From a virus, in the IMG/VR virus record IMGVR_UViG_3300032296_001209, positions 1 to 64,000 of that record: 64,000 bases of DNA. One strand, written 5' to 3'. Positions 57,170-64,000 of this stretch are shown piece after piece. Position 1 is the stretch's first letter. Each line of letters opens with the position of its first letter. The notes under the pieces were generated by a model, which did no database searches, was not told where the DNA came from, and was given only the letters and a program-made list of their open reading frames with translations. The translations under genes and the position numbers were made by a program.

Positions 57170-60100
57170 TTAAGAGCCCTTAGTTTTCCTTCTGTTAGAC
57201 ATTGCAGATTGTGCTGCTAAAATATTACCACGCTCATCTACATCTATATCTCCGAATATACTTTTAACCATAGCAGCCTGAACTGTAGGATTCTTAGTAT
57301 CAATTCCCATTTCAGTTAAGTATTTTGCTAAATCTTTACCCTTTTGTCCAGGTGGAAGTTTTTGAGCTGGTGTATAATAAGTTTTAAGAGCAGCAGGATC
57401 AACAAAGAAATTAGGATATAAACTGTTCATTTGATCTGTTATAAATCTATTTTCTAATGCAGCATTTACATAATCAACAGCCTCTCTTCTACCAGCTCTT
57501 CTAGCATTATCATATTGCTGATTAGTAGCAACAGTCTTATCATAGAAGTCATTAGCAGCTAATTGATTTCTAAAGTTAGCTTCATTGATTAATTGCTTAT
57601 TAGCTTGCTCAAACTGATTAGCTACACCAACATTTAAGTTATTATATCTACCTAAGATATTAGCAGCATTAGCTAAACCTTTACCTTGTACTTCAGAGAA
57701 CCTTGTATTGAAAGCTTGTGGTCCAGTAAACTGAGCCAAGTTTGCACCAGCAATATTAGCCATCTCAGCATTTGCTGCTAACTCTCTATTAGGATCATAG
57801 AATGTAGGCTCCATAGGCTCTGCAGTAAACTGTGCCATTCTAGGATAGTATCTATTGATACTAGCTAAGTCACCAACAGCAGCTGCAGTATTTAATACAT
57901 CTTGAGGATAGAAACCAATAGGTGGTCTTTTTGGAACCGGTGGAGGATTTAATTGTCCTGGCTCAAGAGGATCTCTTGGGGTATTTGGAGTATTTGGAGT
58001 CTCTGGAGTTTCATCATCAAAATAGTTTGGAACAGAATAAGTTACTCTACCAAATTTTACATCTCTTTGATAAGGATCTTTACTATTAGGATCTTTTGGT
58101 TTAAAGTAAGCTTTACCTGTGGCTTTAATAGATTTTTCATTAACCTTATCTTGGAACCATCCTGCAGCTTTATTACCAACAGTTTCTAAATTTTTTAATC
58201 TATCTGGATCATTGTCTACAGTTTCTAAATCTTGTTTAAATTTATTAAATCCTCCTGGATATTCTTTTTCAATCCAATCACCATGTCTGTCTTGAAAATC
58301 TTTCCACTCTGCAGAACTTAAAGTTCCTTCAGTTCTAGCTGAAGCTTCAGCACTTGGTAAATAAATACCTGTATTTTTTACACGAGGTTGATTAGCAAAC
58401 TGTCCTGCAGGAATTCTGGTATAGATAACTTTATTACCTTTTCTAACTCTCTCATCAATTGCAGTTCCAATTTCTGGAGAACCATATTGTGTAAACTTTG
58501 TATCTTCTGCGGTTCTGACTTTTCTAGTTCCTGGTATTTCATTACCTGCCTCATCAACAAGATATTTCTGATCACCTTCATAATACAAATAAGCTTTCTT
58601 TCCTGTTGTTTTACTAGTTCTTTCTTCAATAAAAACTTTAGCATATGGATTTGGCTTTGCTACTTCTTGAGGAGTTTCTCCTGCAGTTTGATACTGTGGA
58701 ATATTACCACCATATTCATAATCGCCCCATTCTGAACTTACAGGATCTGTACTGGGTTTAGCTACATTAACTTTAGGCTTTGGTGTTTGAGCAGCAGGTT
58801 TAACTTTTTGTGTTACAACCGGTTGTTTAACTGGTGCTGGGGCAATGGTATCTACTTGTTGTTTAGCAAACGGTTGATTAAGAGTATTTAAAAACTCTTG
58901 TCTTCCTTTATCTACTCTTTCAATGTAAGATGGAATACCACTAGATTTAATAACTAAATCAATTGCAGCTTCTGGATTATTAAATGTATAATCTTGAAAT
59001 CTCTGAGGAGACATATTTTGTGAAGATACGCTATATGGTGCAGCTTGCATATTAGCTGTAGGTTTAACTTGCCATCTACCATCTTTATATTCTATATCCT
59101 GAGCTGTATATGGTGTTGTTCTATTAACTGGAACATTTGGTGTTGCTCTCTGAGTAATTCCAGTATTTGGATTACCAGCGTAGTAATTTCTTTTTAATTT
59201 TTCAAACTCTGCCATACCATCCATTCTACTAATACCATTTTGAGCTTTAGGAATACCACCATACATAGCCATTGCCATACCTTCTTCAGGAGATGGTGGT
59301 AAGAACTGTGCTGGATCTAATCCTACTTTATCCATATATGGTACAGCAATTTGTGGAACACCTTGAGGAAATCCTTTCTGTGATTCTTGTACAAGAGCTA
59401 ACTTACCTAAGTTAGAGATATAGTTATCAGCCATCATAACAGCTGTCTTTTTACGTAAGGGATCGGTCTCAGAATATAAGCCTTCACGCAACTCTTTATT
59501 ATTAAGATCAAACTTCTTAGAAATTTTAGCTGGAGTATAACCACCTTTCTTAGCAGCAAACCCAAAAGATTCTAATATAGCGGGATCTTTAATCTTCATA
59601 GCCTTTGTATCTGAATAAATAAAACTATCTGGAGTAGCTTTATCTCCAGCTAATGGAGTACCACCTTCTGAGTGACGCTTACCACCAATCTTAAAGAACT
59701 CAGGAATTGTACTATTAGTACCTTTACGTACTAGAGTCTCTCCCTTCTCTGCTTCTAATACAGAGATAGATCTAGGATCCGGTCCTAATGTCTGACCATA
59801 TTGTTCTTGTGGTTCACCTTCAGTAGCACCATTAAACATGTTCATCATGTAAGCTGAGTTACCATATAACTGATTAACAGCTTTAGCATCTTGAGTACCA
59901 CCATATCCAGCTTGTGGTAAACTTGTAATTTTTACTTTTCTTTTCATTTCTCCACCCATTTGGGCCTCTTTATTATAACCTTTAATTATAGCTTCATCCG
60001 GTCTAAAGTCTAAACCAAAACCAGGAGTATTAGTTAAGTAATCTCCTCTATTACCAGAGTAATCTTCCGGTCTAACATTATATAAGTTATCAGCTAAAAA

Positions 60101-60793
60101 CTGATCTCTAAAATCTTCTTCAGTACTTCTATCTTGAATCTTTCTAGCAACAGAACTAAATATATCTGTACCAGCTAATAACATAGGACCCACATAAGGA
60201 TTACCTTTTTGATTAGGTTTTTTTGTTTTAATATCGCCAAATGGTTCTAAGCCCATTAACTTCCTAGTATCTTCAGGAATCTGATCAGTATAAGATTTTC
60301 TAATAGCATCCTTTGTACTAAGAATGCCAGACTCTAATTTAGTATTTCTAGGATATAAGCTTAAAGAACGTCCTCCCATAGATGTAGGCAACTTACTATA
60401 ATCAATAGGAGTTGTATTTTCAAAAAATAAAGGTTCTCCAACACTAGTTTTTGGTGCAAAAGATGAAGGGCGTAGACCTTGAATGCTTGGCATACCTACA
60501 TTAAAAGATCCTGTAGTATTAGGATCTCCTTGATATACATCAGCATAAAATGAAGGATTAGTATTTAAATTAAACGCAGGCATTCCTACATTAAAGTTAC
60601 CACTAGTATTATTAATACCAGAATAAACATCTGCAGAAATTGCTCCAGAGGTTGGTGCACTTCCAAAAGACGGATAGGGATTATTTTTTTGCCAGGTGGC
60701 TAAATAATCTGGACGTAGCACATTAGGTGCAGGTAAGTTATTAAATCCGTATTGAGCTTTAGGTAAGCTCTTAACCCTTACTTTCTTTTTCAT
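57170..60793 (-). CDS. virion cargo protein with xxxGG repeats
   Basis: 1207 aa, low complexity; EAEKGE...HSEGG motif; internal duplicate of the N-terminus. Confidence 0.65.
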   Translation of the reverse strand: MKKKVRVKSLPKAQYGFNNLPAPNVLRPDYLATWQKNNPYPSFGSAPTSGAISADVYSGINNTSGNFNVGMPAFNLNTNPSFYADVYQGDPNTTGSFNVGMPSIQGLRPSSFAPKTSVGEPLFFENTTPIDYSKLPTSMGGRSLSLYPRNTKLESGILSTKDAIRKSYTDQIPEDTRKLMGLEPFGDIKTKKPNQKGNPYVGPMLLAGTDIFSSVARKIQDRSTEEDFRDQFLADNLYNVRPEDYSGNRGDYLTNTPGFGLDFRPDEAIIKGYNKEAQMGGEMKRKVKITSLPQAGYGGTQDAKAVNQLYGNSAYMMNMFNGATEGEPQEQYGQTLGPDPRSISVLEAEKGETLVRKGTNSTIPEFFKIGGKRHSEGGTPLAGDKATPDSFIYSDTKAMKIKDPAILESFGFAAKKGGYTPAKISKKFDLNNKELREGLYSETDPLRKKTAVMMADNYISNLGKLALVQESQKGFPQGVPQIAVPYMDKVGLDPAQFLPPSPEEGMAMAMYGGIPKAQNGISRMDGMAEFEKLKRNYYAGNPNTGITQRATPNVPVNRTTPYTAQDIEYKDGRWQVKPTANMQAAPYSVSSQNMSPQRFQDYTFNNPEAAIDLVIKSSGIPSYIERVDKGRQEFLNTLNQPFAKQQVDTIAPAPVKQPVVTQKVKPAAQTPKPKVNVAKPSTDPVSSEWGDYEYGGNIPQYQTAGETPQEVAKPNPYAKVFIEERTSKTTGKKAYLYYEGDQKYLVDEAGNEIPGTRKVRTAEDTKFTQYGSPEIGTAIDERVRKGNKVIYTRIPAGQFANQPRVKNTGIYLPSAEASARTEGTLSSAEWKDFQDRHGDWIEKEYPGGFNKFKQDLETVDNDPDRLKNLETVGNKAAGWFQDKVNEKSIKATGKAYFKPKDPNSKDPYQRDVKFGRVTYSVPNYFDDETPETPNTPNTPRDPLEPGQLNPPPVPKRPPIGFYPQDVLNTAAAVGDLASINRYYPRMAQFTAEPMEPTFYDPNRELAANAEMANIAGANLAQFTGPQAFNTRFSEVQGKGLANAANILGRYNNLNVGVANQFEQANKQLINEANFRNQLAANDFYDKTVATNQQYDNARRAGRREAVDYVNAALENRFITDQMNSLYPNFFVDPAALKTYYTPAQKLPPGQKGKDLAKYLTEMGIDTKNPTVQAAMVKSIFGDIDVDERGNILAAQSAMSNRRKTKGS

Positions 60794-61341
60794 GTCTTAT
60801 TTTTTAATATACTATCACAAAAGAAATATAATTCATCTAAAGTTAAATCTGATTTCATTTGATTTATAGCCATGCAAACAAATTGTATATTACCTTGGAT
60901 ATATCCTTTTTTACTATCAATTCTATCTATACTTAAGTTAGTTAAAATTCTACCTTTATTACTTAAATATGTCATATCAATTTGAGATAAAGCACATTTA
61001 CCTTCTTGCTTATTCCATATTTCTTTTAAATAATCTAAATCAATATTAACTTCTAACTTTAAACGATTCGCTCTATCTTTTAATCCTAAAAATCTTTTAT
61101 TTAATAACTGTTCAAAAGTAGAATTATTATTACTTAATAATCTTTTTTTATACTGTGAGTGCTTACAATCCTTACATCTTCTATCTTTACCATCTCTATA
61201 AAAAATATTACTCTCTTCAGAATTATTATCAAACAAATTAATATCTTTATAGTCTTTGCATTTATAACAATACAAATTCCCTAAATCATCTTTTTGTTTA
61301 AATTTAGTTCTGTGTCTTCTTTTTTTATCAGATGTATTCAA
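60790..61341 (-). CDS. free-standing HNH-type homing endonuclease
   Basis: CxxC...CxxC; GKCALS; SIDRIDSKKGY..GNIQFVC..INQMK; visibly more AT-rich than neighbours. Confidence 0.8.
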   Translation of the reverse strand: MNTSDKKRRHRTKFKQKDDLGNLYCYKCKDYKDINLFDNNSEESNIFYRDGKDRRCKDCKHSQYKKRLLSNNNSTFEQLLNKRFLGLKDRANRLKLEVNIDLDYLKEIWNKQEGKCALSQIDMTYLSNKGRILTNLSIDRIDSKKGYIQGNIQFVCMAINQMKSDLTLDELYFFCDSILKNKT

Positions 61342-63727
61342 CTTTGTATCCTTTATTAATTAAATCTTGTATTTCTTCATCAGATAATTCATATTCTTCA
61401 CCCATAACATAACCACCATTCTGATAATTTCTTCCACCAAATACATGAGCAAAGTTAGCTCTTTTAACTTGTGTTGCACTATAGTCCTCTTTATTTGCAA
61501 GTACCTTTCTAGCAAACTCTTGCACACCCATACCGGCTCTATTAGCTGACTCAGTAAACTTACCTTTATTAGCAGGATTAATATTTATACCACCATAAGC
61601 CATTTGAGGAGATTGGCCTTGTTGTGCTTCTTGAATAGCCTGCATAATCTTTTGAATAGCTTCTTGTTGTTCTAAAGGTGGTAAAGATTGTAACTGTGCC
61701 ATAAGTTGTTCAGGATCTGTTTGAGTCATTTGTGCATACATCTGAATAGCTTGCATAACTTCATCTTGTTGACCACCCTGTTGATATACTTTACCTCCAC
61801 ACTCATAACAAGGTTGACCACCTTTCATCATCTGGTACATAGCATCTATATCCATTTCACCACCATACATGTCAGTATCACCACCATACATTCTTCTACC
61901 CATTTTACGGAGTTCTTTATTTGATGGAGTTTGACCAGTGCCTAGTCTTGGATCATTAGAATTCATGAACTCTTGATAACCTCTTTGCTTACGACCAGCT
62001 CTAATTTCAGAGGCAATAATACCAGCGGCAGTTCCAATACCTAAACCAATACCAGCTATTGTATCATTACGTTTCTTTTTCTTAGCAGCAGCTTCTGCAG
62101 CGGCAGCTTTTTGTTCTTCTGTTAAAGCTGGACCACCTTCTTGAAATCTACGGGCTTGTTGATCAAATGCAGACTTCTGTAAATTAGTACCTTGATTTAA
62201 TACTTTACCAGTATTAGGATCTACAGCTTGACTAAATGTAGTTGAACTAGAAATAGTTCCTGGTGCAGAATTAAATATCATACGTCCTGTCTGATCTACA
62301 GCTGATTGAGGATTAGAGGACTGATAATAAGAATAAATGTCATTACGTGATGGTGCTTGTTTTACACCAGCTTTATTAAATTGCTGAAGCTGTTGATTAT
62401 AATATTGTTCAAATCTAGGATCATTATCAATACCAGGAGACATAAATGTATTAATAGGGGCAGAACCATAAGTTCCTCCTTCTGCCATATTAGATAATAT
62501 CTTAGCTTGTACGTAAGGAGGTAATGCTTGGAATCCAGCATTAGTTGGTTGACCACCTTTAGCATAACCATAGTCATCTAACTTATCTAAGTTACCAGCA
62601 GCGGCAAAACGAGCACGTGCAATTTCAGGAGGCATCATCTCACCACCATTAGCCCAAGTACCAAAACGTTTGTGCCAGTATAAAGGAGAGAATGGATCTG
62701 TAGCCTTAGCTGAGTTTTTACCACCCATTCTATTCCAGAAATTATCTTTACGTTTCTTAGAACCATGCTGGCTAAAGTCTTTCATACCAACATAACCACC
62801 ATGTACAATTTTATACTTATCACCCTTCTTAGCTAATACCATCCATTTCTTACCAGCTCTATCAGATTTTCTTTTAGCACCTACTTTACTAAAGCCTCTG
62901 TTCTTATAACGCTGAGGAATACCACCCATCTTCATCTCTTCCATCTCACCCATGTTCATATCAATATCTTCTTCCTCTTCCTCTCCTTCTTCCTCTCCTT
63001 CTTCAGAACCTTCATTGAATTGAAGATAGTCAGCAACAGAAGAAATATAATCATCAGCTAAAGTTAATTTACTAGCTACCCAAGGCTCAACCTCTGATTC
63101 ACCATTAATAAAGTTTTGCAATCTAGCAATCTTATCATTCATAGCCATTATCTGACCCATTGCCATTTCACCACCTTCATCATAATAGTTATCACGCATC
63201 ATCATACCTACACCACCCATCTGCATAGCTGGCATACCCATAACATTCATAGCTAACTTTGCCATCTGCATTTTATCTTCACCATTTCCTTCTGCATTAT
63301 CCATAGCAGTTCCGGCAGCCATTGCACCATTAACCATAAAATCACCAATAGCATTCGTAGGATTGTTAGCTCTATCCTCATTCATCTTATTATAATAAGA
63401 AGCCATGTTACCATCATAGTTAGGATATTGGAATATTTGTTGTTGCTCCATACCACCACCGGTTTGAGCTTTTCTATATCCACCACCACGGTTCTTGTAA
63501 GTCTTCACAAGCCATGCAGAACCATAAGCTGAAGGCCAGGTATCAAATTTAGCTTTAGCCTCGGATTTAACACGAGAATATAATCCAGGATTAGTGGGTA
63601 CATTACCACCTTTCTTCATCTCTCTGGCTTCAGGATAAGCTTGAAAGAATGCTTCTTCTGTAGGAAACATAGAATAGAATTCTTCCTCAGAATTAACACC
63701 AGCCATTTGTAAAAATTTATCTTTCAT
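61328..63727 (-). CDS. modular xxxGG-delimited virion cargo polyprotein
   Basis: About 16 xxxGG motifs separate short modules; ATG 63727 preferred over TTG 63754. Confidence 0.7.
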   Translation of the reverse strand: MKDKFLQMAGVNSEEEFYSMFPTEEAFFQAYPEAREMKKGGNVPTNPGLYSRVKSEAKAKFDTWPSAYGSAWLVKTYKNRGGGYRKAQTGGGMEQQQIFQYPNYDGNMASYYNKMNEDRANNPTNAIGDFMVNGAMAAGTAMDNAEGNGEDKMQMAKLAMNVMGMPAMQMGGVGMMMRDNYYDEGGEMAMGQIMAMNDKIARLQNFINGESEVEPWVASKLTLADDYISSVADYLQFNEGSEEGEEEGEEEEEDIDMNMGEMEEMKMGGIPQRYKNRGFSKVGAKRKSDRAGKKWMVLAKKGDKYKIVHGGYVGMKDFSQHGSKKRKDNFWNRMGGKNSAKATDPFSPLYWHKRFGTWANGGEMMPPEIARARFAAAGNLDKLDDYGYAKGGQPTNAGFQALPPYVQAKILSNMAEGGTYGSAPINTFMSPGIDNDPRFEQYYNQQLQQFNKAGVKQAPSRNDIYSYYQSSNPQSAVDQTGRMIFNSAPGTISSSTTFSQAVDPNTGKVLNQGTNLQKSAFDQQARRFQEGGPALTEEQKAAAAEAAAKKKKRNDTIAGIGLGIGTAAGIIASEIRAGRKQRGYQEFMNSNDPRLGTGQTPSNKELRKMGRRMYGGDTDMYGGEMDIDAMYQMMKGGQPCYECGGKVYQQGGQQDEVMQAIQMYAQMTQTDPEQLMAQLQSLPPLEQQEAIQKIMQAIQEAQQGQSPQMAYGGININPANKGKFTESANRAGMGVQEFARKVLANKEDYSATQVKRANFAHVFGGRNYQNGGYVMGEEYELSDEEIQDLINKGYKVEYI

Positions 63728-63732
63728 TTTAG

Positions 63733-64000
63733 TTATTTGTATTTGTTTAGCCAACCGGTTTGACCACCTTCTTTGCGGTATGTTGGTGTAGTATTATTTA
63801 ATAGATCGTAATAGTTTTTAATTCTTCTAGTATAAACACTATCTCCTTGTGCATCTCCTGATTTTAAAGTATTAGGTGATTGCCAGGCATAACCAATTCT
63901 TTCAGCAACACTTAAATCAGCATTACCTTTTGTTTTCATTGTAACTACCAAGCTACCATTTTTAACAGATACTTTATATTTATCTGCTGCACCTGCTGTT
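63733..64000 (-). CDS. C-terminus of a truncated virion protein (ends RKEGGQTGWLNKYK)
   Basis: Frame is open to the window edge. Confidence 0.7.
   Translation of the reverse strand, partial: TAGAADKYKVSVKNGSLVVTMKTKGNADLSVAERIGYAWQSPNTLKSGDAQGDSVYTRRIKNYYDLLNNTTPTYRKEGGQTGWLNKYK

Follow-up and report, generated by a model that had tools for sequence, protein, structure and literature searches.

Gly-Gly seams divide a probable crassvirus cargo protein into small, exchangeable modules

The window analysed here, a stretch of 64,000 nucleotides, derives from an uncultured, freshwater, crAss-like phage that exists as a metagenome record only, with a genome of 97 kb. It contains a gene whose product is made of about a dozen small modules (~13 segments were defined, 26–114 aa long and alternately very basic and very acidic), with a recurring Gly-Gly motif at the seams between them. 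The gene lies at 61328..63727 (-) and encodes a protein of 799 aa (88.5 kDa) from the ATG at 63727. Its longest open reading frame begins at TTG 63754, and the end coordinate of 63727 in the original prediction was borne out, being the ATG at which the homologues begin (MKDKF...). The Gly-Gly seam pattern is real and widespread. The protein probably travels in the virion and is injected, and we see about an even chance that it is a crassvirus cargo-type chain, built like beads on a string, whose joints are uncut, flexible, and recombinable.

All 16 pentapeptides that had been listed for this protein are present in the translation of 61328–63754 (-), along with four more GG pairs (NRGGG, IVHGG, NRMGG, and HVFGG). 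The protein has 22 GG dipeptides against 10.4 expected and 13 copies of [MYFW]xxGG against 1.65 expected, and none of 2000 composition-preserving shuffles reached either count. A genome-wide ORF scan found 0–4 copies of [MYFW]xxGG in each of the other genes, the exceptions being two fibre proteins with 20% Gly. Relatives conserve the motif, at a mean of 11 copies per 681 aa (121 proteins) and with the logo [MY]-[QAKM]-[YMKE]-G-G-[EQI]. There are preferred residues at positions -3, -1, and +1, R, F, L, and A are depleted directly after GG, and, in relatives, about a quarter of the unique segments between motifs do not exceed 20 aa. We found no published description of the seam motif in the literature. 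At the DNA level, 16 of 20 GG pairs are encoded by GGTGGT, and GGT accounts for 80% of the gene's Gly codons, so a seam signal beyond codon usage was unsupported.

It is barely credible that the motif has no function, arising as a by-product of Gly/Met/Tyr/Gln-rich low complexity or from internal starts after Shine-Dalgarno-like GG codons. Such an origin would suit a protein with 11% Gly and 6.7% Met, in which about half of the seams have a Met among the three residues that follow GG, but it is at odds with the shuffles and with motif positions that fall on module borders across hundreds of divergent proteins. Internal translation starts at the seams were rejected, since the GG codons are GGTGGT rather than GGAGG and the phage has AT-rich gene leaders without a Shine-Dalgarno sequence.

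The position of a seam relative to its module can be read at the DUF5754-type module, which was found in 362 representative clusters. Proteins consisting of this module alone are encoded by genes that start M(A/P)IPxRYK and end ..FGTW; their first residue is the one after GG, and their last is the Trp with which the next motif opens. In a set of 139 representative proteins, the embedded module has GG at most 5 aa upstream in 131 of 132 cases and is followed by WxxGG in 127 of 127, while eight proteins terminate at the Trp without xxGG and three begin with the module. A set of 64 ORFs taken from viral contigs obeyed the same rule. AF2 modelled the module at pLDDT 80, with a fold that reaches Trp89 and a connector, ANGG, that falls below 50. 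In our reading, each module would end in a bulky hydrophobic residue of its own fold, followed by a disordered four-residue connector, x-x-Gly-Gly, and then by the next module. The whole-protein AF2 model places the seam GG pairs that were checked in coil between helices; its mean pLDDT of 40 makes it unusable for fold search. The DUF5754 fold gave a best Foldseek E of 1.3 against the PDB, where VIA-align returned no Z >= 2, and matched only uncharacterised viral proteins in BFVD.

We propose that the modules, one of which bears a hydrophobic helix, would be strung out from a leader at the N-terminus to a tail at the C-terminus, both of them constant. All of the following features lie on the (-) strand. 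The leader (MKDKFLQMAGV..AREMKKGG, 63605..63727) is acidic and helical, ends in seam 1, and is N-terminal in every case within the close family. Module M1 (63455..63604, net +7) is the N-half of DUF5872 (Pfam E 7.5e-10) and ends RGGG..AQTGG; it has a homologue in S-BM3 and an intein-like insertion in the relative P0041. Modules M2 and M3 (63170..63454) are acidic, Met-rich, and family-specific, reading IFQYPNY.. and then VGMMMRDNYYDEGG, with the closing seams MQMGG and YDEGG. M4 (62921..63169, net -20) comprises EMAMGQ..EPWVASKLTLADDYI.. and a Glu-rich run, closing with MKMGG. Its EMAMGQ..ADDYI portion is a recurrent module in many relatives and matched no library family at a credible E-value, giving two PHROG matches at ~0.05 with no stretch passing alone. 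M5 (62642..62920, net +19) is the DUF5754-type module, IPQRYKN..HKRFGTW plus the connector ANGG, with Pfam and PHROG matches. M6 (PPEIARARF..YAKGG) and M7 (NAGFQALP..MAEGG) follow at 62474..62641; in relatives they are placed after the hydrophobic module instead.

The C-terminal half continues with M8 (62132..62473), a Gln/Asn/Ser-rich module of 114 aa that closes with FQEGG and is missing from many relatives. M9 (61880..62131) contains a Gly/Ala-rich hydrophobic helix, IAGIGLGIGTAAGIIA, at residues 566–584, and closes with RMYGG. A transmembrane helix had been predicted; one hydrophobic helix is indeed present (mean Kyte-Doolittle 1.63), while its transmembrane status is borderline, and we treat it as a candidate membrane segment. 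Directly after this RMYGG comes a tandem seam array, DTDMYGG-EMDIDAMYQMMKGG-QPCYECGG-KVYQQGG (61772..61879), so that five motifs fall within ~44 aa (residues 621–661) with no module between them. M11 (61589..61771) is Gln-rich and helical (QAIQMYAQ..), with the closing seam MAYGG, and M12 (INPANKGKFT..KRANFA, 61412..61588) matches phrog_20603 and also occurs, at differing positions, in gut crassvirus C1 cargo proteins. The C-terminal tail, YVMGEEYELSDEEIQDLINKGYKVEYI (61331..61411), is of a type conserved in many relatives (64 of 139 proteins), and is a candidate address or anchor peptide and a better candidate for a tag than the seam motif.

Three segments that the original prediction had picked out as self-contained were confirmed by the per-module search: PTNPGLYSRVK..WLVK is the DUF5872 N-half, KSDRAGKKWMV..PLYW belongs to DUF5754, and INPANKGKFT..KRANFA is phrog_20603. 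At least these three modules have independent homologues, and the suspected resemblance to stand-alone small basic genes was also correct, as several modules occur in that form in phages and giant viruses. The notion of an expandable cassette held up when relatives were compared. They gain, lose, and reorder modules at the seams, with 117 distinct module strings in 298 proteins, order changes included, and a GG lies no more than 6 aa away from 72% of homology breakpoints, versus 27% at random. Relatives with shared modules add enzyme domains, namely tail lysozyme, SET, Pol-beta nucleotidyltransferase, and heme oxygenase. Because all seams share one peptide, mostly with GGTGGT codons, they could act as in-frame joints at which recombination adds, removes, and reorders modules.

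The source phage was identified as a crassvirus by Pfam matches to crAss ring 1, ring 2, and muzzle in the region a short way upstream of the gene. The seamed gene is the second after the muzzle gene (PF25731, genome 69170–73894), giant genes follow, and it sits in the cargo block that stretches from the muzzle gene to the virion RNA polymerase genes. The gene between it and the muzzle gene encodes 1810 aa (3' end at 63733..64000 (-), the whole gene running to genome 69165) and has a DUF5872 C-half, GG..WLxxYQxGG spacers, and the terminus GGQTGWLNKYK. On the other side, a 1207-aa cargo-slot gene (57170..60793 (-)), syntenic in ~55 relatives, has a few equivalent seams (AQMGG, AGYGG, AMYGG, and YEYGG). 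Of 80 related viral contigs, ~55 share the order muzzle, 1810-aa, seamed, 1207-aa, and 855-aa gene. In crAss001, the cargo genes gp45 and gp46 come directly after the muzzle gene (PMC10172136), and the seamed gene occupies the equivalent slot.

The portal-binding domain PF25725 (crAss_CARG1, gp45 ~425–552) had no match at E <= 1 in the 97-kb genome and was absent from Pfam scans of the seamed protein and of the 1207-aa neighbour, which leaves gene position and shared modules as the grounds for packaging. The 1207-aa neighbour was considered as a gp45 homologue from a resemblance by eye, for which BLASTP, PF25725, and a PDB sequence search gave no support. PDB sequence searches with the seamed protein and the products of the 1207-aa and 855-aa downstream genes found nothing, nor did a megablast of 24 kb of this phage against GenBank phages. 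In the reading that we favour, the protein would be packed in the particle and expelled via the tail ahead of the DNA, and flexible seams would let the long chain thread the narrow portal and tail channel bead by bead.

A plain hinge does not need a fixed motif length or preferred residues at -3, -1, and +1, and it leaves the five tandem motifs with nothing between them unexplained. Taken with the short segments, these features suggest that something recognises the motif. One candidate, which we think improbable, is docking: Phi-x-x-GG would be a short linear motif bound repeatedly by a symmetric part of the virion or by the loading machinery, with the portal, tail-barrel rings, muzzle, or inner capsid as partners, and would keep the chain within the cargo zone or determine its exit order. 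The motif is conserved as a unit and forms tandem arrays without modules, and crAss001 gp45 binds the portal, the tail barrel, and probably the muzzle via separate short segments in 12 or 6 copies, the ordered portal-bound segment starting at an AFGG seam (PMC10172136). However, modules at the C-terminus lack xxGG without exception, as expected of a connector rather than of a motif that binds by itself. The connector is also predicted to be disordered, no partner is known, and the conserved C-terminal tail is the better address candidate. The loss of xxGG at protein-terminal modules likewise makes it unlikely that the motif is a packaging tag, as had been suggested.

The other candidate is a polyprotein, in which the seams would be cut by a Gly-Gly-specific protease, either an unrecognised one of the phage or one of the host, in the capsid or after injection, freeing the modules as small independent proteins; we regard this as less likely than uncut joints. 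If modules were released from one chain, one address tag would load the whole peptide set. Several observations are in its favour: the stand-alone DUF5754 genes encode the very product expected from cleavage after GG, xxGG is present only if another module follows, and the motif has a fixed length and preferred flanks, including the depletion of R, F, L, and A after GG. The motif also resembles known GG-type sites, such as those of adenovirus ((M/I/L)XGG↓X), ASFV pp220/pp62 (GG↓X), ubiquitin precursors, and double-glycine leaders. Processing has moreover been proposed for polyvalent phage proteins (PMC5512222).

Cleavage at the seams is nevertheless not supported, and the idea of a maturation-protease site found no backing in either the protease searches or the gp45 structure. 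No match for a C39 (PF03412), C48, S78, S78_2, or MPTase-PolyVal (PF18818) peptidase was found in the phage's own genome, and S78, C39, and C48 also drew no match in 14 relatives (completeness at least 90% for 13). Matches to ClpP and to MPTase-PolyVal were weak and sub-cut-off, in each case confined to one of these relatives (both below cut-off for MPTase). Clan CE was searched with the Peptidase_C48 profile, and the S77 search carries no weight, as its control matched nowhere. In the published crAss001 virion model, gp45 residues 425–552 start at AFGGW and run uncut through two more GG pairs, and the paper on the structure says nothing of proteases, scaffolds, or cleavage (PMC10172136). This start is the seam after the M12-like module of gp45, which is homologous to the one here; that seam (NAFGG) is not a strict [MYFW]xxGG, and the motif count in gp45 is 3 versus 1.4 expected, a non-significant enrichment. 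The 2018 crAss001 paper and its supplements assign no band to gp45. Cutting after every GG would also put at risk RMGG and VHGG, which are invariant within the DUF5754 module, would yield fragments of 7–14 aa with no obvious use from the five sites in 44 aa, and would have to proceed at seams where Pro follows GG (FQEGGP). We therefore entertain only tentatively that crAss-like phages load one tagged precursor from which an unrecognised protease frees changeable basic and acidic proteins in the capsid or host, the enzyme then being perhaps an unannotated conserved cargo protein. If true, seam cleavage would bring to tailed phages a Gly-Gly polyprotein processing of the ASFV/adenovirus kind that is, to our knowledge, so far unknown in them.

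Few known phages are as abundant as crassviruses, whose injected non-DNA content is almost unexplored. As a universal border mark, the seam allows hundreds of cargo proteins that are otherwise unreadable to be split into units by a simple rule, and it makes 'cut or hinge' an answerable question. The probably injected module set is reshuffled quickly, as would be expected of front-line proteins for host takeover. The function of the modules would be of wide interest, since DUF5754 and DUF5872 are common to giant viruses and cyanophages.

Among known systems, crAss001 C1 (gp45; Bayfield et al. 2023, PMC10172136; PF25725) is alike in size (90.8 kDa versus 88.5 kDa here) and in being encoded in the block that follows the muzzle gene. 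Both proteins have one Gly-rich hydrophobic helix, near the N-terminus in gp45 and in the C-terminal half here, and both contain an M12-like module (NKGKFT..KRA.FA) and an FQALP..AEGG module. C1 proteins have aromatic-GG seams at module borders, as here, whereas the seam motif is ~4x denser in the seamed protein and strictly Phi-x-x-GG. The M12 module alone matches gp45 (BLASTP 0.008), and whole-protein similarity is insignificant. M12 also matches the cr108_1 cargo-slot protein (tblastn 2e-9), itself a clear gp45 homologue (2e-45); gp45 carries its own M12-like copy at another position, and in both C1 proteins the module is GG-flanked.

Polyvalent proteins, known from phages and conjugative elements (Iyer, Burroughs, Anand, de Souza, Aravind 2017, PMC5512222), likewise combine many unrelated domains per polypeptide, lie among virion genes, are presumably delivered with the DNA, and show extensive mosaicism. 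They have 2–15 distinct domains in a virion or transfer gene context; here there are ~13 modules, at least three of them with independent families. Their description mentions no uniform junction motif ('linker' and 'glycine' have 0 matches in the text; PMC5512222). The modules here are much smaller, and the Pfam scan of the seamed protein found no enzyme domain typical of polyvalent proteins (nuclease, methylase, ART, lysozyme, or peptidase, including MPTase).

In ASFV pp220/pp62, cut by pS273R, and in adenovirus precursors, cut by adenain, a hydrophobic residue lies a few positions upstream of GG, as at the seams. The products include small basic proteins packed with DNA. Here the hydrophobic residue occupies P5/P3 instead of P4, and the clan CE (C48) protease of those systems was found in neither the phage's own genome (0/1) nor the relatives (0/14); the same counts apply to the C39 peptidase (PF03412) of double-glycine leader systems. 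Giant viruses and phages have small basic DUF5754 and DUF5872 modules of the same kind as separate genes or short chains, for example in Chrysochromulina parva virus BQ1 (PMC12085832) and in a 338-aa protein of Synechococcus phage S-BM3. In the freshwater and marine crAss-like phages sampled, the uniform seam instead links most of the modules into chains within the cargo block, and some of these phages also encode a stand-alone DUF5754 gene.

The ORF at 61328-63754 on the minus strand translates to 808 aa, and the ATG at 63727 (MKDKF...), which is the start used by homologues, gives a protein of 799 aa and 88.5 kDa (61328-63727). All 16 of the xxxGG pentapeptides named in the original prediction were found in this translation. 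The protein contains 22 GG pairs (10.4 expected) and 13 copies of the junction motif Phi-x-x-GG, scored as [MYFW]xxGG and called the seam here (1.65 expected); neither count was reached in any of 2000 shuffles. In a scan of 87 ORFs from the 97-kb genome, the remaining genes had 0-4 copies each, except for two fibre proteins with 20% Gly. Given these counts, shuffles, and the ORF scan, the motif is real and specific to the seam gene, with a weaker presence in the two genes beside it. The logo from 440 distinct contexts reads [MY]-[QAKM]-[YMKE]-G-G. Preferred residues after GG are E, I, and Q, with R, F, L, and A avoided. A literature search found no publication on a Phi-x-x-GG junction in cargo-slot proteins.

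The virus record is 97,353 bp long and an estimated 81% complete, and the window is its first 64 kb. Pfam identified the crassvirus tail ring protein 2 (genome 74748-75404), ring protein 1 (73885-74748), and muzzle protein (69170-73894). After the muzzle gene, on the same strand, come an 1810-aa protein, the seam gene, an HNH endonuclease, and then proteins of 1207, 855, 1329, 3147, 586, and 1855 aa. In crAss001, the muzzle gene is followed by genes for two cargo proteins, gp45 (C1) and gp46 (C2), and for the subunits of the virion RNA polymerase. Mass spectrometry has detected both cargo proteins and the polymerase subunits in virions. Of 80 viral contigs retrieved through the DUF5754 module of the seam protein, about 55 share the gene order muzzle, 1810-like, seam protein, 1207-like, 855-like. 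The HNH/endonuclease VII-type ORF (window 60790-61341, minus strand; phrog_3322, E 2.6e-22) sits between the seam gene, whose 3' end it overlaps by 14 nt, and the 1207-aa cargo gene. Only two (L036, L039) of the roughly 55 syntenic relatives had an HNH match, downstream of the seam gene at another junction, and the ORF looks like a mobile homing-endonuclease insertion. Genes of this phage have AT-rich leaders without Shine-Dalgarno sequences, which we take to suggest a Bacteroidota host.

Split at its seams, the protein yields a leader, about 12 modules (M1-M12), and a tail, with strongly alternating net charge (M1 +7, M4 -20, M5 +19, M9 +8, M11 -6, M12 +5). The self-contained mini-proteins proposed originally gained support from three modules with independent families: M1 matches the N-half of DUF5872 (E 7.5e-10), M5 matches DUF5754 (E 2.2e-7), and M12 matches phrog_20603 (E 1.5e-5). 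Further matches of M5 are phrog_9979, phrog_7595, and phrog_220 ('minor head protein and DNA pilot'). A giant virus of Chrysochromulina carries small individual genes annotated as DUF5754 and as DUF5872 (PMC12085832). Since the C-half of DUF5872 was found in the neighbouring 1810-aa protein (E 7e-12; genome 63733-69165, L002:733-6165, window part 63733-64000, minus strand), the Pfam family comprises two modules; a 338-aa protein of cyanophage S-BM3 has both halves in one chain, in reversed order. In P0041, a 903-aa homologue, an intein-like insertion of ~300 aa lies in the DUF5872 N-half at the counterpart of window 63455-63604, between ..FDRWP and SAYGSAW; its first residue is Cys, its last residues are ..VTITGN, and the next residue is Ser. 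No Hint or intein match to this insertion was found in Pfam at E < 1e-3; a real intein there would imply that the module contains a conserved functional core. The most acidic module, M4, with its Glu run, directly precedes the most basic, DUF5754 (window 62642-63169, minus strand), and the two often occur together in relatives (string 'DE'), a pairing that could be intramolecular charge masking.

Modelled alone with AF2, the DUF5754 module has a confident fold (pLDDT 80, pTM 0.67), which matched no solved structure. Its look-alikes in BFVD are uncharacterised phage (e.g. ICP1 ORF125) and giant-virus proteins, and include proteins labelled XkdF and ChaB, while a 100-member Nucleocytoviricota cluster in the ESM Atlas has DUF5754 fused to an Erv1/Alr thiol oxidase. 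This fusion and the XkdF/ChaB labels hint at a virion-assembly or head-internal role across very different viruses. When 1.84 billion representatives were searched exhaustively, 362 clusters contained the module; its identity to the query is 71-94%, and it can lie anywhere along proteins of 108-2662 aa. Among 139 representative proteins, GG lay at most 5 aa upstream of the module in 131 of 132 embedded cases and WxxGG directly followed it in 127 of 127; eight proteins stop at the module's Trp without xxGG, and three open with the module. For 64 viral-contig ORFs, the corresponding counts were 62/64 upstream and 59/59 downstream, with five stopping at Trp. Stand-alone DUF5754 proteins (91-108 aa) begin M(A/P)IPxRYK, corresponding to the position right after GG in chained proteins, and end ..FGTW, whose Trp opens the next WxxGG when chained. 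The modelled fold extends to Trp89, while ANGG has pLDDT <50; together with the terminal forms, this indicates that the bulky residue is part of the module and x-x-G-G a disordered connector. The connector occurs only where something comes next. On four viral contigs of 47-105 kb from more distant phages (L071, L073, L075, L081), a stand-alone DUF5754 gene directly follows a weakly muzzle-like gene (23-25% identity) and ends in one seam and a 10-15-aa tail (..KWEEGG YLPLMGTYKTKMK).

Module content and order vary among relatives with breaks at seams, in keeping with the expandable cassette first suggested. Alignment of 24 relatives showed modules present, missing, or relocated as wholes, with gaps beginning at seams. 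Of 355 internal homology breakpoints, which are not independent events, 72% fell within 6 aa of GG compared with 27% at random, most frequently at MAEGG, WANGG, FQEGG, and RMYGG. Across 298 proteins, simple signatures for 15 modules resolved 117 different strings, among them reorderings such as EfGhT, EhTGf, and ETGh; both leader and C-terminal tail keep their end positions.

The most likely reading, to which we give an even chance, is that this is a cargo-type protein, ejected and built of small beads on uncut, flexible, uniform seams. Such seams would ease threading of the beads through portal and tail and would double as in-frame recombination joints. The crAss001 cargo is thought to traverse portal and tail partly unfolded (PMC10172136). 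A pure hinge is at odds with the motif's conservation as a unit and with the tandem arrays. Among 1224 unique segments between motifs, 295 have lengths of at most 20 aa. It is rather doubtful that the seams are cleavage sites, cut for example by an unrecognised protease or after injection, although the predicted products equal the stand-alone forms, the connector is found only between modules, motif length is fixed with preferred flanks, and the motif resembles known GG sites. No terminase, portal, or major capsid gene was identified in the record, and PHROGs was negative for nine submitted ORFs beyond the window. Because the head module may lie in the portion that is missing, absences from this record mean little by themselves, and the protease searches were therefore repeated in complete relatives. 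HK97-type S78, C39, and C48 peptidases were missing from the phage's own genome and from 14 relatives (13 at least 90% complete), which counts against cleavage. XkdF-type S78_2 and MPTase-PolyVal were likewise missing from the own genome; among the 14 relatives, MPTase-PolyVal gave weak sub-cut-off matches in one and ClpP a single sub-cut-off match in one. The crAss001 structure paper, also weighing against cleavage, never mentions protease, scaffold, or cleavage, and its model has gp45 residues 425-552 in a single chain (PMC10172136). By our own indexing, this chain starts AFGGW and passes QGG and EGG; AFGGW is the seam after an M12-like module, the counterpart of the HVFGG seam in the seam protein, and the chain is thus unbroken through a homologous seam. 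Furthermore, RMGG and VHGG inside DUF5754 are invariant, and cutting at the five motifs in residues 621-661 would yield fragments of 7-14 aa. With no S78, C39, or C48 peptidase in the own genome or 14 relatives and a continuous gp45 seam, the maturation-protease site of the original prediction was not upheld.

That the seam is an independent docking motif is quite improbable, as it is missing after C-terminal modules. Better address candidates are two C-terminal tail types: ..L..L...GY.FEII or ..GYGIEYLD, conserved in 64 of 139 DUF5754-bearing proteins, and GG.T.WL..Y[NK], found in the 1810-aa protein. This 1810-aa protein is a second cargo-slot chain with spacers GGETGWLDEYQTGG, GGQTNWLDIYQDAG, and NGGWLNNYQDGG and the C-terminal end GGQTGWLNKYK; by eye, it has Cys...His amidase-like and lytic-transglycosylase-like (..AISAQESEGG..) segments, neither confirmed by Pfam. 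In the 1207-aa protein (window 57170-60793, minus strand), the N-terminus MKKKVRVKSLPKAQYG is repeated internally directly after a seam (AQMGG, then EMKRKVKITSLPQAGYGG). Similar 'SLPKxQxG' peptides start many cargo-slot proteins in relatives, and such a peptide may serve for docking or be a gene-fusion trace.

The cr108_1 protein, a gp45 homologue (2e-45), has an M12 module 63% identical to that of the seam protein. This module follows the portal-binding domain in cr108_1 and precedes it in gp45, with GG on both flanks in each, and lies at the extreme N-terminus in cr127_1. Bona fide C1 proteins obey this seam rule as well. The defining C1 portal-binding domain (PF25725) was not found for the seam protein, which is therefore filed as cargo-slot, polyvalent-type rather than C1: the two have modules and seam rule in common, whereas the portal-binding domain belongs only to C1. 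In further relatives, these modules are fused to a tail lysozyme with a peptidoglycan-binding domain, to a SET domain, to a Pol-beta nucleotidyltransferase, or to a heme oxygenase, and these enzyme-domain fusions follow the same theme as the polyvalent proteins (Iyer et al., PMC5512222).
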